A stretch of DNA of 64,000 nt from assembly GCA_963718895.1 (NCBI GenBank), contig CAVRAG010000007.1:224001-288000 (forward strand), read 5' to 3'. The translations under genes were made by a program, and so were the position numbers. Below, one piece after another: positions 49,140 through 63,708 of the stretch; the stretch's first letter is position 1, and each line of letters starts with the position of its first letter. Under the pieces are notes generated by a model. That model searched no databases. It had not been told where the DNA came from and saw only the letters and a program-made list of their open reading frames with translations. The DNA is from an uncultured Nitrososphaerota archaeon (GTDB taxonomy: Archaea > Thermoproteota > Nitrososphaeria > Nitrososphaerales > Gagatemarchaeaceae).

Positions 49140-51309
49140 CTAGACGAAGAGAGCGTAGAGCACTATGGCGGCGACGAAGACGATCGAGATTGTGTTGAGC
49201 ACCTTGATCAACGAGTTGATCGCCGGGCCCGCCGTGTCCTTGAACGGGTCGCCCACGGTGTCTCCCATGACAGCGGCCGCGTGAACGGGGGTCTTCTTCC
49301 CCCCGAGGTTTCCCAGCTCTATGTACTTCTTGGCGTTGTCCCAGGCGGCGCCGCCGTTCGTCATCATGAAGGCGAGGAAGACGCCGGTTATGACGCTCCC
49401 TATCAGCAGGCCTCCCAGAGCGACCGGCCCCAGGATGAATCCGACCAGCAGAGGGCTGACCACGGCCAGCAGCGCGGGCTTGGCGAGCTCCCTGAGCGCC
49501 GCAGTCGTGCTGATGTCGACGCACTTGGCGTAGTCGGGTTTCCCGGTGCCGTCCATTATGCCCGGGATCTCCCTGAACTGTCTGCCGGACCTCGTTCACC
49601 ATCTCGATCGCAGCCCGGCCGACGGCCTGGATGAGGAAGCTGGAGAAGTAGAACGGGAAGGAGGCTGCCGATGAACAGCCCGATTATCACCCTCGGGTCG
49701 GACAGGGCGAAAATCAGTGTCATCCCGCTGGTCAGTCCGTACTTTGCCATGAGGCTGGCGTTGCCCGTGATCTGGTTGTTCACCTCGCTCTGGAACGCGA
49801 AGAAGATTGCCACCGCAGCCAGCGCGGCCGAGGTGACCGCGAACGCCTTGGTCGTCGCCTTGGTAGTGTTCCCGACCGCGTCGAGTTCGTCCGTGACCTC
49901 CCTGACCCCGCTCTCCAGGCCGGCCATCTCTACGATTCCGTTGGCGTTGTCCGTGATCGGCCCGAAAGAGTCGATAGACATGATGATCCCCGTCAGCGAG
50001 AGCTCGGCCATGGTCGCCACGGCGGTGCTGTACACGCCGAAGAGCATGCTCTGGCCCGAGGCGTAGTAGCCGATGAAGTAGGAGAGCGCTATGGCCAGGA
50101 CGAGCACGAGTGCTGAAGGAGCGGTGCTCTGCAGGCCCGTCGAGAAGCCGGCCAGGAAGTTCGTGGCCGGGCCCGTCTGGCTCGCCTCGGCGATGAACTT
50201 CACGGGCCTGTACCTGTACGACGTGAAGTAGTCGGCGACCCTCTCGATGACGATGACGACTATGACACCGACGACCGCGCTCGCGAGGAGAGCGTATCCG
50301 AGCGTGCTCCCGGCGAAGACCGACTCGGAGATCACTCCGTCGATCGCTATGGCGATCACTGCCGAGATAATCAGCGCGATGTTGAGCGACCCCATCGGGT
50401 CCTTCTTGATCGACTTTCGGATGTAGAGACCGCCGAGTATGGAGCCGATTATGCCCGACGCCCCGAGGAGGAGCGGATAGACGAGCAGCTGGTTCGAGGT
50501 GATGAGCGAGGTGAGGGAACCGAACTTGGCCGGGTCCGACGCCGCCGAACTTGTAATCAAAGCCGCGAGTATCAACGCCGCGATCGAGGTGACCACGAAC
50601 GACTCGTAGACGTCGGCCCCCATCCCGGCGCAGTCCCCTACGTTGTCGCCGACGTTGTCCGCTATCACGGCCGGGTTCCTCGGGTCGTCCTCGGGTATTC
50701 CGCCTCGGCCTTGCCGACGAGGTCCGCCCCCACGTCAGCCGCTTTGGTGTAGATGCCGCCGGAGACCCTCATGAACATGGCGATGAGGGAAGCGCCGAAC
50801 CCCAGACCCGCGATGACGTGCGGGCGTGGACACGATGATCGACTGGTATGCGATGTAGAACAGCGACACGCCGAGTAGCCCGAACCCGACGACGGCCATG
50901 CCCATCACGCCCCCGCCCCTGAATGCGAGGGTGAGCGCGGGCCCCGAGCCCATTCCTCGCCGCCTGCGCGGTCCTGGAGCTCGTCCTGACCGTCGTCGGC
51001 CATCCCGATGTATCCGGCTATCGCCGAGAGAGCTGCTCCGACGAGGAAGCCGATCGACGTGACCCCTCCGGTCTTCAGTGGGATGTCGATGAAGACGTAG
51101 ATGAGTATCGAGATCGCGATCGCCACGGGCGCTATCACGGTGTACTCTCTTCGAAGGAACGCGTTGGCGCCGATCCGAACCGCCGTCGCTATCTCGGTCA
51201 TCTTCGGAGTTCCGGGGTCCTGTCTCCTGACGGAGAGGAAGAGGGCGAGCGAGTAGATGAGCGCTACCGCCGCGATGCCGGCGGTTATGACTCCATAATC
51301 GGTGGGCAA
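49140..51309 (-). CDS. hppA: Membrane H+-translocating pyrophosphatase; several indels
   Basis: [47 protein letters not shown] across four ORF fragments. Confidence 0.92.
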
Positions 51310-51388
51310 ATCGGTTTTGTCGACCTTGGCTCCCGTGGGATTTGGGAACCCGTTATAAACAGTAGGGCGCGCGCCGCGTCCAGACTCG

Positions 51389-52337
<949 letters not shown>

Positions 52338-52507
52338 GGGAACAAGCGTCCGCGCCCTCCCACGATTTTTAAAGGGTTGGGTGGAGCACACTTTCGGGGA
52401 ACCCGCCCCTCCCCGCCAGCCGAGGAGGACGCATCGGCAACGCACCTGCTCGCGGTAGTCGTCCGTGGCCGAGCCAGTGGATTAGTCCTTGTCCGTGTCA
52501 ACTCTCC

Positions 52508-53509
52508 ATGTTAAACTCTGAGTATCTCGAAGGATGCACCCAATGCCTTGGCCGGATAGTCGATGCTGGCGACGAGCTGGTCTGCTCGTCGTGTGGAATC
52601 GTGACACCCAAGGAGGTGGTCGAGACAGTCGAGGAGAGGGCGCCCCACGCCGCGGACTACACGAACCACTCGCTCGGCAGCTACATGGGCCCGCTGGAGT
52701 TCGGCTACGAAGAGATGAACTCGAGAGGCCTCTCGGCCTCCCCTTCCACGTACAAGTACCTCAAGACCCTGTCTGACTTCTCGTGCAGGAAGGGCGTCGC
52801 GGTCTACAACTGTGCCAAGCTGATGGAGCGGGTCTGCGAGAAGCTCGAGCTCCCGGGGACCGTCGTTGGGGAATCGGTTGCGATCGCGAAGAGCGTGATG
52901 GAGATGAGGGAGGGGCACGGAGAGATCACGCTGGCGGCGGTCTCTGCGTTCGCCATCATCAACGCGTGCAAGAGGCAGAGGGTGACGAGCGTCGGAGTGA
53001 GGGAGATCATGGACGCGCACAGGAACCTCGGATACCGCGTGAAGGCGTCGATCATCATCCAGATCTCCATAGACTCCCCCGTGAGGACCGGTCCGAGGAT
53101 GGCCGAGGAGTACCTCGGGAACGTCCTCGTCCACCTGCAGCAGCGACTCACGGAGGACGGAGCGGTCCCCACGGGCTACTTCAACGCGCTCTACGAGGCG
53201 GCGAGGATAGCGCTCGAGAACACCGACGGTCCCTCAAGGGGAGGGCACAACCCCCGGGCGCTCGCCGCGACCGCCGTCTACGCCGGTGAGATGGCGCTCT
53301 CAGTAGCCGAAGAGAGGAAGAGGATCATCTCCCAGAGGGAGATAGCTGCCTGCGTCGGTGTCGCCGAGTACACCGTGAGGGAGCAGTTCGTCGAGATATT
53401 CAGGCCGAGGATGGAGGAGATCCAGCGTTCACTGAGGTCGCGAGGGAGCCCTCGCCCACAACCGTCAGCTGAAATGGTCCCGATACCCCTTCAAGCCCGC
53501 TCTCCGTAG
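52508..53509 (+). CDS. Divergent transcription factor B paralogue
   Basis: Zn ribbon CTQC...LVCSSCG; two cyclin-like repeats; GHNPRALAATAVY, QREIAACVGVAEYTVR. Confidence 0.85.
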   Translation: MLNSEYLEGCTQCLGRIVDAGDELVCSSCGIVTPKEVVETVEERAPHAADYTNHSLGSYMGPLEFGYEEMNSRGLSASPSTYKYLKTLSDFSCRKGVAVYNCAKLMERVCEKLELPGTVVGESVAIAKSVMEMREGHGEITLAAVSAFAIINACKRQRVTSVGVREIMDAHRNLGYRVKASIIIQISIDSPVRTGPRMAEEYLGNVLVHLQQRLTEDGAVPTGYFNALYEAARIALENTDGPSRGGHNPRALAATAVYAGEMALSVAEERKRIISQREIAACVGVAEYTVREQFVEIFRPRMEEIQRSLRSRGSPRPQPSAEMVPIPLQARSP

Positions 53510-54206
53510 TCGAGATCCAGTAGTCGACCGAACACCCCGAAGGTGCGGGGGTCGCCGAGGCTCCCACCGAGTAGGAAGCCAGCAGAGGGTAGCTGGAATC
53601 CGCGGCCCCGACTGCGCTGTCGACCCCCGTGGAGTTGCAGGACTGGAGCGAGGCTAGGGCGCCGCCTAGGTCCGACAGTGCGCCAAGGCAGTCTGAGATG
53701 ATGGAGGCGAGGGGGATCGGGAGATGCGCCGCTTCGGTCGCCTGCACCGAGTATGACGGCAGGCCGCCGTCGTAGGATTCTTCCATCGTCGTCCGGATTT
53801 CCAGGTTGAGATCCCCGGCTTCGAAGCCGCCGAACTGGGCGACGCCTGCGGAGCCGCCGCCCGAGGTCGGAGCGGGGGCGTAGGACCACGAGGTACCGGC
53901 GGTATAGGATATCCCCTCGTCGACCCCGGAGTCACGCTGACTCCCAGCCATGGAGTCCAGATAGGGTTCAGGAGAGGTGCAGTCGAGGGGGTTCGACTGG
54001 AGATACCCCTCGGCTCCGGCGAGGGACGCGTAGGCCGAGAGGCCGAGGAGGACTTCGCTGTAGGCTCGCTCCCTCACCTGGACGGCCGAGAGGACTGCTG
54101 CACCGAGACTGCTGTTCTCAGAAGAGTATAGGGCGGAATTGGCCACGAGGAGGGAAGTGAAGATCACGAAGGAGATCAGGGTGGCGGCTACGGCGCTTCG
54201 ACCCAT
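53400..54206 (-). CDS. Membrane-anchored extracellular protein, minor-pilin-like
   Basis: MGRS plus N-terminal hydrophobic helix; Ser/Gly/Cys-rich domain; last gene of the operon. Confidence 0.65.
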   Translation of the reverse strand: MGRSAVAATLISFVIFTSLLVANSALYSSENSSLGAAVLSAVQVRERAYSEVLLGLSAYASLAGAEGYLQSNPLDCTSPEPYLDSMAGSQRDSGVDEGISYTAGTSWSYAPAPTSGGGSAGVAQFGGFEAGDLNLEIRTTMEESYDGGLPSYSVQATEAAHLPIPLASIISDCLGALSDLGGALASLQSCNSTGVDSAVGAADSSYPLLASYSVGASATPAPSGCSVDYWISTTESGLEGVSGPFQLTVVGEGSLATSVNAGSPPSSA

Positions 54207-54547
54207 GCCTCTATCTCCATCTGATTGCCCGAGACCGAGAACCCGAAGCTGGAAGAGCCGAGAAACTGCTGCGGGGCGGGACCGCACGGGACCCCGTTGA
54301 TCGTCCCACCGAGGACGACCGTCTGATTGTCCGATTCCCGGAGCGACTCGCAGAACTGAGAGTGAGTCGCGGTCGCGAGAAAGGGAAGCCCCACGCTCTG
54401 AACGTATTGGGCCACCGCTGAGCTCGCACGGGCATCCGATAGGGCGGCCACCGCGGACCCCTCGACTGGATAGGGGTTCAGCACAGCGATCAAGGACACG
54501 CAGAGGATCGCGTATCCAGCGGCCACTGCGATGTCGAGTATTCTCAT
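54188..54547 (-). CDS. Small pilin-like protein
   Basis: MRILDIAVAAGYAILCVSLI N-terminal helix; Cys pair. Confidence 0.6.
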   Translation of the reverse strand: MRILDIAVAAGYAILCVSLIAVLNPYPVEGSAVAALSDARASSAVAQYVQSVGLPFLATATHSQFCESLRESDNQTVVLGGTINGVPCGPAPQQFLGSSSFGFSVSGNQMEIEAWVEAP

Positions 54548-54549
54548 CT

Positions 54550-54663
54550 TCAGGCTCCTGCGTGGGAAGCGACTAGGGAGAGACAGACCACGGCGAGCAC
54601 AAGGATGAGGACGAAGGCGAGGGCCACGTCGATGTACAGGTCGATGAACCCTCGTCTACGCAA
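54550..54663 (-). CDS. 37-aa pilin-like peptide with class III-like signal (not in the ORF track)
   Basis: MRRRG|FIDLYIDVALAFVLILVLAVVCLSLVASHAGA; fills the gap between neighbours. Confidence 0.65.
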   Translation of the reverse strand: MRRRGFIDLYIDVALAFVLILVLAVVCLSLVASHAGA

Positions 54664-55027
54664 ACTCGAGCGAGCCTCCTTCAAGTTCGACCACGTACCC
54701 ACGATCTGACGAGAGGACGGAGCCCGGCAGCGTCCAGATCACATCCTCGCGGGCCGACGAGCCGTCGACAGTCGCCGTCACGCTCCGTCCGGAGAGAGCA
54801 ACGGATATGTCGACCCCTGGGAATGACCCGAACCTCAGCACTGTCGTCATCCCGGGCGAGAGCGCGTCTATCTGGCCAGCGATGCTCTCGGCCAGGTGCT
54901 TCGCGGCCGCAAGGTCCGCGTCACCATAGGCCGTCCTAACGGGGGGGATCAGAATCCCGAGCAGGAGGAGCATGGAGGCGAAGTAGACGGATGTGGAGAG
55001 CGCACCCGACAGGCTCGAGACAGGCAT
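54656..55027 (-). CDS. Small pilin-like protein
   Basis: N-terminal hydrophobic helix, then an AKHLAESIAGQIDAL helix and beta-rich tail. Confidence 0.65.
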   Translation of the reverse strand: MPVSSLSGALSTSVYFASMLLLLGILIPPVRTAYGDADLAAAKHLAESIAGQIDALSPGMTTVLRFGSFPGVDISVALSGRSVTATVDGSSAREDVIWTLPGSVLSSDRGYVVELEGGSLEFA

Positions 55028-55389
55028 CAGCTCTCGACCTTCAACTCCAGACCGTCAGGGCCCCGGCTGAAGGCCAGCGTGCAGAGGCAGGATACGCCGT
55101 CGAGGTTGAAGCTGCACGGGTATCCCACAGCCGTCGAGAGGTTTGAACCTCCCGAGGAGAATCTCAAGATCCCCTGCGAGCAGGATATCGAGGCCCCGGA
55201 GAGCGGCAGGATCACTGTCGCGTTCCCGTTCAGGGCGGCAAGGCTAGCTGCACCTGCGATTTCGTCCATCTGGGCCTTGGCCTGGGTCTGATCCATTATC
55301 GGAAGTGAGCCTCCGAGGATCAGGATGCTGAAGGCAGAGAGGGAGACCGTCACTGCGAAGACTAGGACATACTCTATCAGTTCGACCAT
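55027..55389 (-). CDS. Pilin-like protein (xxLIEY motif)
   Basis: MVELIEYVLVFAVTVSL... resembles a Flp/TadE-type N-terminus; four Cys. Confidence 0.7.
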   Translation of the reverse strand: MVELIEYVLVFAVTVSLSAFSILILGGSLPIMDQTQAKAQMDEIAGAASLAALNGNATVILPLSGASISCSQGILRFSSGGSNLSTAVGYPCSFNLDGVSCLCTLAFSRGPDGLELKVES

Positions 55390-55467
55390 CTTTGACCAGA
55401 CAGATACCTCCCCGCCCGTTTTAAGCGGCAACCCCGTGGTGGTTTAGTACCTGCGGCGGGTATCCGT

Positions 55468-56925
55468 GTGATGGAAGGCCCGATCACAAGGACGATCCAA
55501 AGGATCGCAGGGAAGAAGAGGGGCGCTGTCCGATCCCAGCCCCTCCTCCTGGAACTCTTCCAGGAAACGGGTGGAGACGAGGCCGAGACCTACAGCATCC
55601 CTCCGTTCGTCTTCACAATCAAGAGGGAGGACGGGAGGATGAACTACCAGGCGGTCCCCGACTTGTCACCGAGGGAGCTCGTGAGGCTGCGGGAGACGGT
55701 CGCCGAGGTTAGCGCCGGGCTCAGGCCGTCCGCTCTGAACCCCCTTACCTTCACCGGACTCGTCGAGACGCTCAGCCAGGCGGGAGCGGGGTGCCTTGCG
55801 ACGATCGGTGACACCGACAGGGTGAGGATCCTCTCCAGGCTCGCCGCATTCGAGGCGGTCGGTATCCCCACGGTCTACTGCCTCTCCCTGGACGATTCGG
55901 TCTCGGAGTTCTACGTCGACTCTCCGGGGACCCCGATCTACCTGGACCACGCCAAGTACGGGAGGTGCGAGACCCAGTTGACCCTCACGGAGAGGGAGAG
56001 GAAGGCGGTGGAGACTCATATGGACACGTTCAAGGGATACACCATCGACTTCTCGAACCCCTCCCTGAAGAACGAGTTTGACATCTTCGGTCACCGGCTC
56101 CGGGTCTCACTCGACCTCTCCCCGCTCGCCGTCAGCTCATTCTCGCTGGACGTCAGGAAGCTGACCTCGAGCGAGTTGACGCTGGTGGACCTGGTCCGCG
56201 GGAACGTCCTCTCGGCCGAATCGGCGTCCTTCCTGTTGGCCGCGCTCGACCTCGGGATGAACGTCACCATCGTCGGGGAGACGGGGACCGGCAAGACGAC
56301 TCTCCTCAACGCGCTGGACGAGGCGATGAACCCTCGGCTCAGGAGGATCTACGTCGAGGACGCGGTCGAGACCAAGGACATGCTCGCCAGGGGCTACCAC
56401 CAGATGAAGCTGAAGGTCGATCCTTTCGAGAGAGGGGCCGAGAGCTCTCGGACGAAATCCATCGAGATCACAAAGATCCTTCACCGGTCCCCCGATGTGG
56501 TGATCCTGGGGGAAATCCAGTCGGAGGAGCACAGCAAGGCGTTCTTCCACGCGCTCTCGGCGGGGATAAGGGGCCTGCAGACCTTCCACGCGTCATCCAC
56601 GACCCAGGCGGTCAGGAGGTGGAGGGAGATGCACGGGATCTCGAAGACCAACCTACTTGACCTTGACGTCCTGGTCCAGATGGCGCGGCCGGAGAGGCTG
56701 GGGTCATCCAGGCAGGTATTCGGGATAAGCCTGGTGGTCGAAGAGGAGGGTGAGGCCAGGCTCCGGGAGCTCTACTCGAGGGGCAAGGACGCGCACCTCC
56801 AGCGCATCGTCTCATGGGACAGGCTGCAGATCCGTCGGCCCACCTACACGAGGGAAGAGCTCCTCCAGAACCTGGAGCGGATCCAAGCAGCGATAGAAGA
56901 CCGCGTCGTTAGGGTGAGCAGATGA
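55468..56925 (+). CDS. Type IV pilus/Tad assembly ATPase (VirB11/TadA/FlaI family)
   Basis: GETGTGKTT, YVEDAVE Asp box, RSPDVVILGEI, TFHA His box. Confidence 0.92.
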   Translation: MMEGPITRTIQRIAGKKRGAVRSQPLLLELFQETGGDEAETYSIPPFVFTIKREDGRMNYQAVPDLSPRELVRLRETVAEVSAGLRPSALNPLTFTGLVETLSQAGAGCLATIGDTDRVRILSRLAAFEAVGIPTVYCLSLDDSVSEFYVDSPGTPIYLDHAKYGRCETQLTLTERERKAVETHMDTFKGYTIDFSNPSLKNEFDIFGHRLRVSLDLSPLAVSSFSLDVRKLTSSELTLVDLVRGNVLSAESASFLLAALDLGMNVTIVGETGTGKTTLLNALDEAMNPRLRRIYVEDAVETKDMLARGYHQMKLKVDPFERGAESSRTKSIEITKILHRSPDVVILGEIQSEEHSKAFFHALSAGIRGLQTFHASSTTQAVRRWREMHGISKTNLLDLDVLVQMARPERLGSSRQVFGISLVVEEEGEARLRELYSRGKDAHLQRIVSWDRLQIRRPTYTREELLQNLERIQAAIEDRVVRVSR

Positions 56926-57626
56926 AGACCAACTCGTGGGATGCGCTCGGACTCGACCGAAGACGCATGTCATTCTTGGTGGTCCTTGTGTCGAGCTTGG
57001 TGGGCTCGGCGGTCGTCCTGGTTACATACCATCTTCTCGGACAGCTGGCCGTCGTGCTGGGGGCGATCGTCGCTCTCGGTTCAGGATACGCCTTGGCGGC
57101 TCTACCACGAAGGTCGGTCGAGAGGTCGGCCATTCGCCAGGCGGGAGAATCGCCAGCGCTCGCAGCGGCGGCCTCCGTCTATCTGCAGAGCTCCGGATCC
57201 AAGAGCAAGACCCTCCTGATGCTCCAGTCGGAGGAGCCGAGGCTCTCCGCGCTTCTGAGTGAACTGAGGAGGGACATGTTGCTCGGGATCGACCCGGCCG
57301 AGACATATGCGAGGATGGGAGGGAGGACGGAGTCGGAGTCGGTATCCAAGATCCTTGGCTCGGTCGTCAGGGCACAGGGCGAGAGGCTGGCCGACGAGGG
57401 AGAGGAGCTCGAGGGGATAGTCAACGGGTCGCTCTCGAGGGAAGAGACCAAGTTCCCGGTCTTCCTGACGATCTCGTTCTTCCTGCCCATAATGCTGATG
57501 CTTCTGGCCGCCCTCGGCCACCACACGGACCCCGTCTCCATCGTCAGCCTGACCTTCTTGGAGGTCGTCATCCTGGACCTGGCACTGACGCTCTCTTCCA
57601 CCGAACGGGCGAGGCTCGCCGCATGA
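56922..57626 (+). CDS. TadB/TadC-like membrane platform protein
   Basis: TM pair, LRRDMLLGIDP cytoplasmic domain, C-terminal TMs; coupled to the ATPase. Confidence 0.7.
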   Translation: MKTNSWDALGLDRRRMSFLVVLVSSLVGSAVVLVTYHLLGQLAVVLGAIVALGSGYALAALPRRSVERSAIRQAGESPALAAAASVYLQSSGSKSKTLLMLQSEEPRLSALLSELRRDMLLGIDPAETYARMGGRTESESVSKILGSVVRAQGERLADEGEELEGIVNGSLSREETKFPVFLTISFFLPIMLMLLAALGHHTDPVSIVSLTFLEVVILDLALTLSSTERARLAA

Positions 57627-58238
57627 GCTCGCCGGACCTAGGGCGATTGGCGAAGCTCAGACAGGTGCTCAGGCTCGCGGCCCACGGAAAGGGAATAGCC
57701 GCCTCGATCGTCGAGGCGTTCCGAGAGAGCAAGATCGAGGAGGAACGGGAGATGGTGAGACGGATACTCCTGGGGATCCCGGTCGAGCAGTCCGTTGCAG
57801 GACTCGTGTCGAGGGACGACCGCTCGCGGGACGTCCTGCTCTACGTCGTGAACCAGGCGAAGGTGAACGCCGTCGAGGCGAGCAGGAGGGCGGACAAGCT
57901 CTCTTCACTCTTCGAGCACTGGGTCTGGATGAAGAAGCAGCGCGTAGTCGAGCAGAGGATCATGGAGACGAGGAGCATTCTTGTCTCGGGAATACTCGGA
58001 GGAGTCACCGCGATGATCTCAGCCCTCGCTCCGGTCCTGGCCACGTTCCAGCTCACGCTGGGCGACGCCACCACCTCCGACCAGCCCTGTCTACCTCGGC
58101 ATCCTCTTCGTCATCCCGGCGGCATCTTTTCTCGGGTTCTTCTTCTCTCCTGGGAGAGCCTATGTGAACGTGATCGTCTCCGTGCTCGCGTTCTCTCTGG
58201 TGAGCTACTTCTTCACACCGCTCATCGTCGGCTTCTGA
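57623..58238 (+). CDS. Second TadB/TadC-like membrane protein; indel near 58075
   Basis: RRILLGIPVE domain; hydrophobic C-terminus resumes in another frame (PVYLGILFVIPAASFLGF...). Confidence 0.65.
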
Positions 58239-58277
58239 CAGGTTGGAGGTTAAATATCTCGTCGGCATAATGGTTCA

Positions 58278-58493
58278 ATGATCGAGCGTATCTTCAAGAG
58301 GCTGAGAAAAGACAGGAGGGCTGCGCAGCTGATCGAGGAGGCTCTCCTCCTCTCGGTCGCGCTCGTGGCGCTGTCGCTGCTGGTGGGCGGGATCGACTCC
58401 ATCCTGAAACAGGCCGGAGGGTTCACGTCGGGTATCTGGAGCTCAATCTCCTCGACCCTGAACAACCTCTTCAGCTCCGCGTTCCAGTGGTGA
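58278..58493 (+). CDS. Flp-like major pilin candidate
   Basis: MIERIFKRLRKDRRA|AQLIEEALLL: basic class III leader, Glu at +5, short amphipathic body. Confidence 0.78.
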   Translation: MIERIFKRLRKDRRAAQLIEEALLLSVALVALSLLVGGIDSILKQAGGFTSGIWSSISSTLNNLFSSAFQW

Positions 58494-60256
58494 ACGGGTT
58501 GGAGACCGACGAGGACGGCGGCGGAATCTTCTCCAGGATGAGGTGGAAGGTGAGGAGCTGCCTCGCCCATCAAGATAGACTCGATCGGGGTTCTCGACGA
58601 CCGCTACCTCGCCATCTCCAGGGGCGACACCTCGAGGCTCATGTCCCTGCTCAGGGTGGGGCTGGCCGAGACGGTCGACGACTCGAAGCTCGACTACTCG
58701 ACCGCGGTCAGGATCACCCTGCAGCAGCAGCGGATGAAGGGCCTGTTCGACGGGCTCCACAGGTCGAAGATACCCTTCCTCTACCTCATCATAGTCAAGC
58801 CCGCCGAGCAGGGCGACCGAGGACAACCAGGTCTTCGAGTTCGACCTCGTGGTCGGGACTTGGATGGACGTCAAGGCGAGGAAGGCCGCGGACGTCGATG
58901 TCCACCCTCGAGCAGAACACCGGGGTGCTCGCGGCGACCCTCGCCGTCGGCGTCCCCAACTCGGCCGTCAGGAGGCTCACCAGGAACGAGCTGAAGGACT
59001 TTGGGCAGGAACCTGCTCCAGCCGAGCGAGCCGAAGCTGACACAGGTGGCGGACGCCTCGACGATCAGCAGGCTGGAGTCGTTCGAGAGGCGGAGCCCCG
59101 CAGTGCAGACGGGCCAGACTGCGCCGGAGTTCTACGTCCCCAACGCCTCGGAGTCCGGGACAGAGCGGGATCCTGCTGGGCAGGGTCAGGACCCGCTCGG
59201 GCACGTCCCACGAGTTCAGGCTGCAGCTCGACGACCTCAGGAGGCACGTGGCGATCCTCGGGATGACGGGGGCCGGCAAGTCGACGAGCGCGTCGGTGAT
59301 CGTGAGGCAGGTCGCGGGGATGGGGCTGCCGCTGATGGTACTCGACTGGCACAACGAGCACTCGGACCTTATCAGGTCGATAGGCGGCCAGGTCTTCTCG
59401 CCCGGGAAGGACCAGTTCACGATCAACCCCCTCGACATGACCACCTCGACGGAGCCCGTCGAGCACATCGCCATGATGACGGACATCTTCTCCGACATCT
59501 ATCACTTCACGCACCCCCAGGCCTACATGTTCCGGAACGCGCTCCAGAGGTGCCTCGGGGAGGCCTCCGACCGCGAGGTCCCGACCCTCTCCTCGCTCGT
59601 CAAGGTCATCGAGGGCTACCCTCTGAGGTCGGCCTACGACAACGAGACGAAGGTCGCGCTCCTGAGGAGGCTCGTGCCTCTCACCGAGGGGCAGGTGGGC
59701 AGGGCCCTGAACGGACCGTCGAGCCACACCGTCGACGAGCTGCTCGACAAGGTCCTCTGCATCGAGCTGGGACAGATCAGGGACATCCAGACCAGGAGCA
59801 TCTTCGTGGACATACTGCTGAAGATCATCTACGAGCACAGGGTCAGCAAGCGAGGCAAGCTGGAGCACCTAATCGTGGTCGAGGAGGCGCAGGAACATCG
59901 CGCCGGTGAGGAGGGAGGAGGACCCGCCGAGCGTGGGCGAGAGGATGATCTCCGAGCTCCGGAAGTTCGGGGAGGCGATGGTCTTCGTCGCCCAGTTCCC
60001 CACCCAGGTCGCTTCCGAGGTGATAAAGAACTCCGGAGTCAGGATAATCCACAGGGTCTCCTGGGCGGAGGACCTGAAGCTCATCGGGGAGGCGCTCAAC
60101 CTGAACAGGGAGCAGCTGGCCCACGTCTCGAGCCTCGGGGTCGGGGAGGCTGTGGTCAGTCTGGCGAGGCTCCAGAATCCGATACTGGTTCAGGTCGAGG
60201 CGGGGTCCGTCCTCGGGGCAGAGAGGAGAGACCTCAGCTTGCTAGAGGAATCGTAG
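58487..60256 (+). CDS. HerA/VirB4/FtsK-like ATPase; multiple indels
   Basis: HVAILGMTGAGKS, VLDWHNEH, INPL, LIVVEEA, ELRKFGEAMVFVAQFP across several frames. Confidence 0.85.
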
Positions 60257-60813
60257 CCGAGCGTCCAGTCGATCCAAGGCGCGGACTGCGGGACTCCGGC
60301 GCGGAGGTCGCGGACGATCTTCCTCGCGAGCCGAGCGGGCTCCGCCTTGGTCGAGTCGTACTCGTGGACTCTCGACCGACCGAACCTTCGGACCGCACCG
60401 TCGAGGACGACCCCTATCAGCTCGGCTTCGACGTTCTCGAGGACCTTCTCGCTGGAGTAGCCCCTGGAGGCGAGGCGCCGCTTCAGGACGGCGGGGTCGC
60501 ACCTCAGGACGGCCACGAACTCGACGTCCGCGGGACCGAGGACGTCGGCGAGGAGGTGGCCCGAGATGACCGCGCCCGAGAGCGGACGGCCCCTGAGGGC
60601 GACGCCCAGCGCCTTCACGTCGACGACGAGCTCTCCCGACTCGCTCGCGACGGAGTGCGCACCCGCGAGTGCGTTTATCTCGAGGAGCTCACCACGGATC
60701 ATGGGGGCCAGCGCACGGGAGACCGACTTCTTCCCGGTCCCCGGGGTTCCTGTGACCCCCAACGCACCCCTTCGTCCCACGCCGGGCCGGCGTCTGCGGT
60801 CGAGTTCTCGCAC
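60190..60813 (-). CDS. Archaeal adenylate kinase (AK6/Fap7 family)
   Basis: GTPGTGK, SGHL, LRCDP...RRLASRGY, KVLENVEAE. Confidence 0.9.
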   Translation of the reverse strand: MRELDRRRRPGVGRRGALGVTGTPGTGKKSVSRALAPMIRGELLEINALAGAHSVASESGELVVDVKALGVALRGRPLSGAVISGHLLADVLGPADVEFVAVLRCDPAVLKRRLASRGYSSEKVLENVEAELIGVVLDGAVRRFGRSRVHEYDSTKAEPARLARKIVRDLRAGVPQSAPWIDWTLGYDSSSKLRSLLSAPRTDPAST

Positions 60814-62056: not shown

Positions 62057-62144
62057 TCTACCGGACTCGGGCCAGGCAGAGGCGGACTCGTCACGCCGTC
62101 ACATTGATATCCCTGAGTCAACCCCGTGGACGTTCAGGACGAGG

Positions 62145-62219
62145 TGCCCCGGGTGGGATTTGAACCCACGTCGCTACCTCGAGAGGGTAACATGCTTGAC
62201 CGGGCTACACTACCGGGGC
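62145..62219 (-). tRNA. tRNA-Glu(CTC), no intron
   Basis: Acceptor GCCCCGG/CCGGGGC, anticodon stem TTACC/GGTAG, loop CT-CTC-GA, TTCAAAT. Confidence 0.96.
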
Positions 62220-62556: not shown

Positions 62557-62778
62557 CTAAGGCTTCAGAATGGCCTTCGCGGCGAGTTTCACGTCCGAGG
62601 GCTTCACGGTCTTCCTGCCTGCGTGCTTTGCCAGCTCTATCGCCTGCTTTGCAATCTGTGTCCCGACGTCCTCGAGAACCACGCGAAGCTCCACCGCCGC
62701 ATCATCCCCGACTCTGTCGGCGCCCGCCTTCTTTATCAGGCGGTAGACCGCAGCTAAACCAAACTCTGACTCAGACAT
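62557..62778 (-). CDS. Archaeal histone
   Basis: [12 protein letters not shown]...[14 protein letters not shown] histone fold. Confidence 0.96.
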
Positions 62779-62967
62779 ATGCTGTATTGACCTGCAGAGC
62801 GAATTATTAAACGTTTGGTGTAAAAACGTTTGCATCTCGGCTCCATTGCCGTGCGCCTGCATGATTCTCACCTCTTACAGCCAGAGGGGCAGAATATTGA
62901 GGAATAGCACTTCGGGAGAGTCGAAACACACCCGTAGGAATATATCGTCCGAGAGCAAAGGCGACTC

Positions 62968-63708
62968 ATGACGCTGGTCGACGCCCACGTACACCTCCCC
63001 GCATACGGGGCAGACAGAGGGCCGCTGAAAATCGCCCTGGAACGGTCGATGTGTCTCATCTCCTGTACCGTGAATCCATCCGAGGCGCGGGTTGGGGCGC
63101 GATTGAGGTCCGAGGCGCCCCACAACGTCAGGTCGTTCGTCGGGGTGCATCCCTCGGACGTCACTGGCGACCTGCCCAGTGTGGCGCTCGCCCCGTTCCT
63201 GGAGGGGTGCGACGGGATAGGTGAGATCGGCCTTGACGAGAAGTACTCGCCGACGTCCGAGGGGAGCGCCCAGATGAATTCGTTCCTGGACCAGCTTGGG
63301 GTGGCCGAGAGACTCGGCAAGCCGGTCCAGGTGCACAGCAGAGGCTCGGAGCAGAAGTGTCTCGAGATACTCGGCACGTTCAACCTCAGGCGGGTGGTGA
63401 TGCACTGGTTCGAGAGCGAGCCACTTGTCCCGGAGGTGATCGAGCGCGGATACTTCGTCTCGGTCGGACCTGCGGTACTGTACTCGAAGAAGATACGGAG
63501 AATCGCTCAGGGCATCCCCTTCGGTAGCATTCTGACCGAGAGCGATGGTCCCGTCGCCTTTGGGCCTCTGGGCGGGGCGAACGGGCCCGACCTCATTCCC
63601 AGTGTCCTCTTCTGTCTCGCGGGGCTCAGGAGGGAGAGCTACGGGGACTTGGAGAAGCAAGTCGAGGAGAACACCAAGAGGCTTCTCGGCGAGGAAAGGT
63701 TAATCTAA
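62968..63708 (+). CDS. tatD: TatD-family hydrolase
   Basis: DAHVH, GVHP, IGEIGLD, VHSR, HWF, ESDGP. Confidence 0.94.
   Translation: MTLVDAHVHLPAYGADRGPLKIALERSMCLISCTVNPSEARVGARLRSEAPHNVRSFVGVHPSDVTGDLPSVALAPFLEGCDGIGEIGLDEKYSPTSEGSAQMNSFLDQLGVAERLGKPVQVHSRGSEQKCLEILGTFNLRRVVMHWFESEPLVPEVIERGYFVSVGPAVLYSKKIRRIAQGIPFGSILTESDGPVAFGPLGGANGPDLIPSVLFCLAGLRRESYGDLEKQVEENTKRLLGEERLI

Follow-up and report, generated by a model that had tools for sequence, protein, structure and literature searches.

The window analyzed in this study is a stretch of 64,000 nucleotides from contig CAVRAG010000007.1 (assembly GCA_963718895.1, positions 224,001 to 288,000 of the forward strand) of an uncultured Nitrososphaerota archaeon. 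It carries a cluster of pilus genes that ends with the gene for an ATPase of the HerA/VirB4 class, called CedD-like ATPase here after its best-scoring family. All listed genes of this pilus locus were located between 52.5 and 60.8 kb of the window using the list of open reading frames (ORFs), Pfam and tblastn (Table 1). G007 (locus L026), a relative whose genome is a single contig, provided the intact reference genes for comparisons. The G+C content is 59–67% in the window, and 62% is given for the Nitrososphaerota (Thaumarchaeota) metagenome-assembled genome (MAG).

Table 1. Genes and features of the pilus locus, with positions in the window.
Feature	Position	Strand	Evidence
Divergent TFB (TFIIB) paralog, 333 aa, Zn-ribbon	52508..53509	+	Pfam TFIIB E 3.3e-7
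Minor pilin-like protein D, 268 aa from MGRSAV	53400..54206	-	56% identity to G007; hydropathy peak at residue 4
Minor pilin-like protein C, 119 aa	54188..54547	-	62% identity to G007
Tiny pilin-like peptide, 50-aa ORF, about 40 aa conserved	54550..54702	-	tblastn in G007, G017, G009
Minor pilin-like protein B, 123 aa	54656..55027	-	67% identity to G007; hydrophobic helix at residues 9-27
Minor pilin-like protein A, 120 aa from MVELIEY	55027..55389	-	60% identity to G007; hydropathy peak at residue 8
Divergent spacer, 78 bp	55390..55467		read from the sequence
T2SSE/VirB11/FlaI-family pilus-assembly-type ATPase, 485 aa	55468..56925	+	Pfam T2SSE E 1.7e-20
Platform-like membrane protein 1, 234 aa	56922..57626	+	73% identity to G007
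Platform-like membrane protein 2, 204 aa in G007	57623..58238	+	tblastn pieces 57623-58090 and 58071-58235
Flp-like pilin, 71 aa	58278..58493	+	86% identity to G007; motif conserved in orthologs
CedD-like HerA/VirB4-class ATPase, 587 aa in G007	58487..60256	+	Pfam DUF87 and HerA_C; NCBIfam CedD
Adenylate-kinase-6/Fap7-like kinase (AK6), convergent	60190..60813	-	Pfam AAA_18; G007 ortholog PRK03839 E 2.3e-26

A previous reading made from the DNA letters alone (the sequence-only reading) had described five small pilin-like genes on the minus strand, diverging across about 80 bp from an operon of an assembly ATPase, two membrane proteins, a 71-amino-acid pilin and an overlapping HerA-like ATPase. 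All of these genes were found at the places described. The spacer between the two gene groups was determined to be 78 bp, which presumes that the first minor pilin begins at MVELIEY (55389). Its sole A+T-rich element is TTTTAAG (55419–55425), which by its sequence may be a TATA box shared by both operons. In the plus-strand operon stops and starts overlap: the start of platform 1 overlaps the stop of the T2SSE ATPase by 4 nt, and the GTG start of the CedD-like ATPase overlaps the stop of the 71-amino-acid pilin by 7 nt. The likely start of the T2SSE ATPase is the ATG at 55471.

The assignment of the cluster to the archaeal type IV filament kind of system, together with the identity of its parts, is held with good confidence. 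The T2SSE ATPase matched Pfam PF00437 with 73.4 bits (E 1.7e-20), above the Pfam cut-off of 24.9 bits; an ATPase of this family is one of the marks of an archaeal type IV filament system. For the G007 protein, the NCBIfam matches were FlaI (3e-20), TadA (4e-19), TrbB (4e-16) and VirB11 (2e-15), of which FlaI, TadA and TrbB lay far below their cut-offs.

The platform-like proteins have a size of about 200–290 amino acids, and their position, size and topology fit a split platform. Platform 1 has one N-terminal transmembrane (TM) helix, a helical cytoplasmic part and C-terminal TM segments. A language-model lead from the Atlas pointed to T2SSF for this protein, as its nearest clusters (scores 0.94 and 0.92) hold PF00482 in 28% and 72% of their members, respectively. 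The comparison of platform 1 with platform 2 using hhalign gave a weak match (probability 43%, E 2.5e-4). In the Pfam search no T2SSF match was found at E≤0.01, the E-value being 0.75 for one of 12 platform proteins. When both platform alignments were used as profiles to search PDB sequences, chance-level rows were all that came back, and the hhalign comparison with the T2SSF protein of the same genome was insignificant (probability 0.1% and 7%). None of the 64 homologs of the platform alignment had a Pfam domain or an informative name. The AlphaFold2 model of platform 1 was poor, with a predicted local distance difference test score (pLDDT) of 61 and a predicted template modeling score of 0.28, and its Foldseek search gave nothing at E≤0.001. 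A complex prediction for platform 1, platform 2 and the N-domain of the CedD-like ATPase scored 0.00 and has no weight either way. The designation of both proteins as TadB/C-like in the sequence-only reading is therefore backed by position, size, topology and one language-model lead, while no family model confirms it.

The 71-amino-acid pilin has a predicted cleavage site R-R-A↓A-Q-L-I-E-E with Glu at +5/+6; the protein also has a single hydrophobic helix and ends in an amphipathic tail. Cleavage after a small residue with Glu at +5 is also seen in bacterial type IV and Flp pilins. In an alignment covering several classes, the motif was found to be [KR][AG]↓[SAT][QP]-L-[IV]-E-E-[GA]-[LM]-L, and E20, E21 and L24 were invariant in 18 of 18 orthologs, so that the proposed likeness to Flp pilins in leader and Glu+5 was borne out. 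The identity of this pilin within the family is 62–86%, and in 15 of the 20 loci taken from other families its ortholog directly precedes the CedD-like ATPase.

The five minus-strand genes each code for an N-terminal hydrophobic helix (best 19-amino-acid hydropathy 2.1–3.3), and the minor-pilin genes show 56–67% identity to G007 within the family. Class-III leaders were assigned by motif, namely in the 71-amino-acid pilin and in minor pilins of other lineages. Protein A has almost no leader and a TadE/Flp-like N-terminus as judged by eye. By eye as well, counterparts of protein C in other lineages carry the class-III-type leader KG↓Q/N-[IV]-P-L-I-D-A, and those of protein D, which has a large Ser/Ala-rich outer part, start with leaders of the type [KQ]G↓[IV]F. 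The tiny peptide shows the motif RRRG↓F-I-D-L-Y followed by one hydrophobic helix, and tblastn found it in G007 with 79% identity over 42 amino acids. Its true start lies inside the listed 50-amino-acid ORF, since a stop is present upstream in G007. Neither Pfam nor NCBIfam gave a family for the 71-amino-acid pilin or the five minus-strand pilin-like proteins.

The studied locus contains no Peptidase_A24 gene. In the related locus L049 such a gene heads the minor-pilin operon (29.3 bits, cut-off 26.5). A second, more ordinary pilus locus of the same genome is situated next to an ATP-dependent DNA ligase gene (L139 = G000:C7:358000-377000). Besides a T2SSE ATPase it encodes a platform protein with a true T2SSF match (26.4 bits) and an A24-like peptidase (21–25 bits, cut-off 26.5), which probably processes the pilins of the cluster studied here.

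The cluster could also be read as a stripped-down type IV secretion system (T4SS) or Ced-like conduit, composed of a VirB11-type ATPase, VirB6-like membrane proteins, a VirB2-like pilin and a VirB3/VirB4-like ATPase. The T2SSE ATPase indeed matches the TrbB and VirB11 models as well, the membrane proteins lack a T2SSF match and the last ATPase is VirB4-like in fold (see below). The conserved pilin motif with Glu +5/+6 directly after a basic leader, the presence of another four to five pilin-like genes whose leaders are of class-III type and the A24 prepilin peptidase inside one related locus speak against such a conduit, as do the best NCBIfam matches of the ATPase (FlaI and TadA) and the T2SSF lead for the membrane protein. 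This interpretation is decidedly improbable.

The gene of the CedD-like ATPase is present and coupled to the pilus genes as predicted from the sequence alone; it is not one open frame in the window. Compared to the intact 587-amino-acid ortholog of G007 it contains six 1-base insertions (near 58559, 58817, 58895, 59008, 59162 and 59891) and is read in four frame pieces. One further 1-base insertion was detected near 58065 in the platform 2 gene by DNA alignment to G007. Relatives carry both genes intact. Six sequencing runs of DNA and none of RNA were listed as containing the stretch, each DNA run with a small share of it. For an independent check of the insertions, contigs from four public soil/peat runs were used. 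The base at 58560 is omitted in one X3 contig and the base at 58894 in one X5 contig, so that the extra base is absent from the short-read contigs wherever they bridge an insertion of the CedD-like gene (two sites), the other four of the six sites being unbridged. Two X2 contigs stop and start exactly at 58065.

Next to the pilus locus, the genes of an H+-translocating pyrophosphatase (four frame pieces) and of deoxyhypusine synthase (DHS; two pieces) at 49221–52445 on the minus strand are frame-broken compared to the intact G007 genes. The completeness score of the genome is 80.5% despite an assembly in 11 contigs, megabase contigs among them. Because housekeeping genes are broken alike, because of the completeness of 80.5% and because the contigs from other runs lack the extra bases, the seven frame breaks are very probably assembly errors and not gene decay. 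If the CedD-like ATPase and one platform gene were instead true pseudogenes of a system decaying in the source organism, this would fit the six insertions within 1.77 kb of one gene, compared to none in the 1.45 kb of the T2SSE ATPase, and the four sites that no independent contig bridges. The manner in which the neighboring housekeeping genes are broken, the other-run contigs at both bridged sites and the low completeness in the presence of megabase contigs all argue against this, and moreover the six insertions sum to a restored frame at the end, with no stop-free decay seen. Decay is thus very unlikely.

For the family assignment of the CedD-like ATPase, Pfam and NCBIfam models were compared. 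Pfam yielded DUF87 (E 1.5e-12) and HerA_C (E 6.7e-4, 18.8 bits, below the 22-bit cut-off). The G007 ortholog matched CedD (NF053655) with 173.4 bits (E 7.4e-51), which is far from the full-length match of at least 600 bits that defines this family and is reached by true CedD representatives (659 and 746 bits). The HerA models scored about 60 bits (8e-17) and VirB4 TIGR00929 scored 33.7 bits (1e-8, cut-off 643). An exhaustive HMMER search with the CedD-like ATPase found 5,722 relatives, 112 of them at E≤1e-30. NCBIfam was scanned with 83 of the best 150 representatives, the shortest and longest rows being left out, and CedD was the best family for all 83; two were above the cut-off and five more near it. 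Among close relatives the identity is 64–84%, making this ATPase the best conserved protein of the cluster.

The AlphaFold model of the CedD-like ATPase (14-row alignment, pLDDT 75.8) shows an alpha/beta N-domain (residues 30–176), a disordered linker and a confident ATPase domain. The ATPase domain (residues 216–576) fits the VirB4 C-terminal domain with Z 33.6 and a root-mean-square deviation (rmsd) of 3.0 over 339 residues, followed by the DndH C-domain (Z 32.5), HerA (Z 29.1) and TrwB (Z 26). The top Foldseek match by E-value was HerA (4d2i). Membership in the VirB4 family, as defined by TIGR00929 together with VirB2, VirB3 and VirB6 neighbors, does not apply, and the likeness to VirB4 is at the level of the fold. 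Pfam searches on ten CedD-like proteins of other lineages detected no DNA-binding domain in addition to weak TrwB_AAD_bind matches in the P-loop region. In other lineages two TM helices open the protein, or a small 2-TM protein is encoded separately before it. The membrane-anchored N-terminal part is a gene of its own between pilin and ATPase in three loci (L033:10416-11387, L049:8481-9107 and L051:8473-9027). The family of the window has lost the membrane anchor, and its ATPase would need to dock on a partner.

The Pfam label DUF87/HerA and the top Foldseek match to HerA 4d2i could suggest an ordinary repair HerA that lies next to pilus genes by chance. The genome has a separate canonical HerA on contig C8, which is located beside a NurA-like gene and matches HerA_Thermprot over its full length with 339 bits; the pilus-linked ATPase has neither a full-length HerA match nor a NurA neighbor. 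In addition, HerA models score 60 bits compared to 173 bits for CedD, and the linkage to the pilin is kept across classes. A repair HerA can be practically dismissed. The sequence-only reading had proposed that its view would fall if the ATPase grouped with NurA-associated HerA and was unlinked to pilus genes in relatives; neither was observed, and the physical coupling of pilus genes to a HerA/VirB4-class ATPase extends to the relatives.

This synteny was analyzed at several distances. The order DHS, TFB and pilins, divergent from ATPase, platform 1, platform 2, pilin and CedD-like ATPase, with AK6 convergent to the latter, is kept in the window and in four relatives, of which one belongs to a different genus; in a fifth (L031) the locus is cut by the contig end at the T2SSE ATPase. 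The close homologs of the CedD-like ATPase are labeled by their sources as Nitrososphaerales, Thaumarchaeota or Nitrososphaerota MAGs. In 20 loci from other families both ATPases were found together 15 times. Contig ends truncate two of the remaining loci. A third carries the pair of pilin and ATPase but no T2SSE gene in 5.3 kb of DNA upstream, and the last two have the ATPase alone. Furthermore, 80 named public loci were picked by their CedD-like match. For 59 of these at least 4.5 kb of upstream DNA was available, and the T2SSE ATPase was located upstream in 57 (59 examined). The gene arrangement is far beyond chance.

The two exceptions among the 59 are a fusion locus (L054) and a partial duplicate (L081). 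In one related MAG (L054:9811-10001) residue 65 of TFB is joined to residue 45 of the CedD-like ATPase and the whole pilus part is gone; the junction is due to either a deletion or a misassembly. In another relative (L081) a partial ATPase copy (residues 280–587) and a second AK6 are situated about 20 kb downstream of the full cluster.

Within the phylum, 130 of 401 sampled genomes had a HerA-like match at E≤1e-20. Family f12, a member of the order to which the window belongs, had none in its 56 genomes. The T2SSE ATPase had an ortholog (E≤1e-40) in 85 of the 401 genomes. The CedD-like gene lay within 6 kb in 57 of the 85, on another contig or far away in 7, and no match at E≤1e-20 was found in 21. 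Eight further loci (L140–L147) were taken from groups without a nearby CedD-like gene. Of these, L146 and L147 have a more divergent CedD-like gene, L144 has a weak match only, and L143 and L145 are cut by contig ends; the other three are discussed below. The full order was identified in records titled Nitrososphaerales, Nitrososphaeria, Conexivisphaerales (L103), Bathyarchaeia/Bathyarchaeota (L095, L129) and Brockarchaeota (L123), as well as in six Methanomethylicia records (L110, L113, L116, L118, L128 and L132, the last being Ca. Methanosuratincola verstraetei isolate LCB70). The Nitrososphaeria that carry the recurring order are non-ammonia-oxidizing. The module is therefore spread across the phylum and not special to one lineage. 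Sulfolobales are not the applicable frame of reference for a lineage of the Nitrososphaerota.

Upstream, the TFB paralog adjoins the cluster in 14 of the 20 loci from other families and also in most named loci. It scored 31 bits against NCBIfam PRK00423 (cut-off 384) and is the conserved upstream neighbor and likely a dedicated regulator. AK6 is convergent downstream in 17 of the 20 loci; it is outside the machine and marks a conserved boundary of the cluster. The cluster is old, chromosomal, vertically inherited and not mobile. A mobile element such as an integrative and conjugative element or a plasmid was considered and ruled out by the housekeeping flanks, which have the same order across classes.

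Downstream of the cluster, a tRNA-Glu (CTC) was found at a distance of about 2 kb (62143–62219, minus strand). An archaeal histone gene is located at 62557–62871 on the minus strand, the histone fold matching residues 39–97 of the 104-amino-acid ORF, which has either an N-terminal extension or a later start. It is adjoined by a gene of a TatD/YchF-family nuclease (62968–63708, plus strand).

The cluster resembles the bacterial Tad/Flp pilus but is not a member of it. In common with Tad/Flp pili and the Epd-like pili of Methanococcus it has two short platform-like genes by the ATPase, a very short pilin with Glu+5 and a second ATPase. According to the available parts of one source, Epd-like and Tad systems have two platform genes, short pilins and FlaH or TadZ as the second ATPase (PMC6668835). 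In the present cluster, in contrast, the second ATPase is of the HerA/VirB4 class and neither FlaH/KaiC-like nor TadZ/ParA-like, and no Flp or T2SSF model matched. Accordingly, neither Pfam nor NCBIfam gave a KaiC/FlaH-like match in the locus, and among the locus ORFs scanned with Pfam there was no ParA/TadZ-like or secretin match. A secretin would not be expected in an archaeon.

CedD, a recently named component of the Ced system, is described as an ATPase of the HerA/VirB4 class that is bound to the membrane and without which Saccharolobus and Sulfolobus cannot import DNA (PMC11868833, PMC11823120). It is the best-scoring family (CedD/TedD) for the last ATPase of the cluster and has the same class of ATPase domain. 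Relatives in other lineages share the layout of two TM helices, N-domain and ATPase reported for CedD in the available text of PMC11868833, and some orthologs lack the TM part, as is likewise reported for CedD. The differences are a score of 173 bits compared to the 600-bit cut-off, a match restricted to the ATPase domain, a separate clade and the missing CedB partner. Moreover, the gene is placed inside a type IV filament operon and not beside VirB2-like (CedA1) or VirB6-like (CedA) genes. Co-occurrence with CedB was not observed; CedA and CedA1 were not seen either, though no search was aimed at them. CedB matches above the cut-off were confined to family f35 (15 of 15 genomes).

According to the abstracts of PMC6101591 and PMC6101594, both the Ups pili and the Ced genes of Sulfolobales are driven by TFB3, which is a TFB paralog. 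The present cluster is similar in combining a pilus, a HerA/VirB4-class ATPase and a TFB paralog. Whereas Ups and Ced are separate loci and machines in Sulfolobales, here one operon holds both kinds of motor. The cluster is a widespread type IV filament system joined to a Ced-type ATPase, for which no description in print was found. No literature on a pilus operon with a CedD/HerA-type ATPase could be identified, although the unchecked supplementary tables of PMC4858521 and PMC13705601 may list such loci. HerA, CedD, VirB4 and TFB are mentioned nowhere in PMC13705601.

Subclade 4D of Pyrobaculum and Thermoproteus is another of the closest described systems. The available portion of its description lists a shortened Cys-rich ATPase, one protein with four to five TM helices that is unlike others, and a TFIIB homolog in the operon (PMC4858521). 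In the same portion the subclade has no pilins and the authors suggest that it may no longer be a pilus, which is repeated in the part of PMC13705601 at hand. An operon of the 4D type is present in three genomes of family f27, and we infer from the match to the 4D description that these are the published 4D hosts. The 343-amino-acid 4D-type ATPase and the T2SSE ATPase of the window are reciprocal best hits, with an E-value of 1e-29 compared to 3.7e-5 for the other T2SSE protein of the genome. Since the window ATPase is the closest relative of the 4D-type ATPase, the present cluster looks like the full form of the 4D system. Besides this reciprocal best hit, both have a TFIIB-family gene directly upstream and short membrane proteins without a recognizable T2SSF signature after the ATPase. 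Instead of a shortened Cys-rich ATPase, one membrane protein and no pilin, the cluster contains a full-length ATPase, two membrane proteins, the CedD-like ATPase, the conserved 71-amino-acid Flp-like pilin and a further four to five minor pilins. In the window, six genes are pilin-like.

Near the f27 operon (L148:9946-10536 and L149:4805-5395) a gene codes for a 196-amino-acid protein with four TM helices, the N-terminus of which resembles a prepilin peptidase; it matched no NCBIfam model. If it is a prepilin peptidase, 4D may be less pilin-free than described.

As proposed for 4D, the cluster might no longer make a filament and might be repurposed for secretion or a transcription-linked role. 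The close relation of the two ATPases is consistent with this, as is the TFIIB gene in the 4D operon, for which repurposing is suggested in the available text of both papers (PMC4858521, PMC13705601). In contrast to 4D, however, the cluster keeps a strongly conserved short pilin (62–86%) and four to five minor pilins, so that the loss of filament formation is quite unlikely.

For the filament system with the CedD-like ATPase, the following mechanism is suggested. The TFB paralog would switch on both divergent operons. The pilins would be cut by the class-III signal peptidase (A24) encoded elsewhere in the genome, the 71-amino-acid pilin after R-R-A with Glu at +5. The T2SSE ATPase and the two platform-like proteins may then polymerize this pilin into a thin filament on a primer of minor pilins. 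The CedD-like ATPase ring would dock at the cytoplasmic face of the same machine and pump DNA across the membrane, either in uptake or in cell-to-cell exchange. DNA transport is favored as the task of the machine because the nearest characterized relative, CedD, imports DNA, and because DNA exchange in Sulfolobales also brings together a pilus, ATPases of this kind and a TFB paralog. Judged from the sequence, this task is a real possibility that stays somewhat short of probable.

Several results weigh against DNA transport. The scanned locus ORFs include no DNA-handling gene (nuclease, ssDNA-binding protein, relaxase or ComEC-like channel). The CedB model found nothing at E≤1e-30 in the source genome, and CedB is missing in the module-carrying families f22 (0 of 17 genomes), f24 (0 of 32) and f30 (0 of 6). 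The CedD model aligns to the ATPase domain only (residues 227–568 to profile positions 199–525). An IQ-TREE quick search was performed with 53 rows and 495 columns, comprising 17 pilus-linked and 2 stand-alone ATPases, 26 CedD/CedD-like rows, 3 CedB rows and 5 paralogs of the source genome. The pilus-linked ATPases with the two nested stand-alone ones formed a clade of their own (SH-aLRT 99), which stands beside and not inside the separate clade of CedD and CedD-like rows (SH-aLRT 95); no firm branching order among the pilus-linked, CedD, CedB and outgroup clades was obtained. The strongest fold match is VirB4, which is regarded as a motor of pilus biogenesis and not as a DNA pump, and the family of the window has no TM segment in its CedD-like ATPase. 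The platform-like proteins are without any T2SSF model match. Finally, in L140, L141 and L142 the series TFB, ATPase, platforms and pilin is directly followed by AK6 with no CedD-like gene. As three lineages keep the pilus core without the CedD-like ATPase, the core does not need it. Of the DNA-transfer machine proposed from the sequence alone, the relation to a DNA-import ATPase has thus remained, set against the missing DNA-handling genes, the missing CedB and the lineages lacking the ATPase.

The main rival assigns the CedD-like ATPase of the same machine to the filament, as a VirB4-like second motor that extracts pilin or drives retraction. Archaea are not known to have PilT. The ATPase gene always follows the pilin gene and often overlaps it, and in L033, L049 and L051 a small 2-TM protein lies between them. 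This pilin/2-TM/ATPase order recalls the order VirB2-VirB3-VirB4 of the T4SS. The best fold match to the VirB4 C-terminal domain (Z 33.6 compared to 29.1 for HerA), the alignments to R388 VirB4, which span the N-domain too though with an rmsd of 17–18, and the lack of DNA-processing genes in the locus point in the same direction. On the other hand, the pilin has type IV features (Glu+5, with an A24 peptidase in a related locus) and not those of VirB2, and lineages without the CedD-like ATPase keep the pilin. The nearest characterized relative CedD is needed for DNA import, and strains with cedD deleted reportedly continue to make Ups pili according to the part of PMC11823120 available, which does not cover the formation of Ced pili. 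A role as filament motor is therefore considered rather doubtful.

In its widest form, the DNA-transport reading sees one integrated machine of a Flp-like pilus and a CedD/VirB4-type ring for DNA uptake or exchange, which would be ancient across the TACK archaea and their main natural DNA-uptake route. The 4D system would be its remnant, and the machine itself would be an extant link from type IV pili to the type IV secretion (Ced) systems. This is a tentative proposal that is unlikely to hold in full.

A practical lesson for the source genome is that its assembly contains many single-base insertions which break real genes. The cluster supplies a context both for the orphan subsystem 4D and for a family of short archaeal pilins that is unrecognized by any current family model. 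For most archaea outside the Sulfolobales no route of DNA uptake or exchange is known, and the Ced system does not extend beyond Crenarchaeota. The pilus operon described here includes a CedD-type motor, and its conservation covers soil Nitrososphaeria, Bathyarchaeia, Methanomethylicia and Brockarchaeota. The hypothesis that this machine may transport DNA is directly testable, since the carrier Ca. Methanosuratincola verstraetei is recorded as an isolate with a complete genome.

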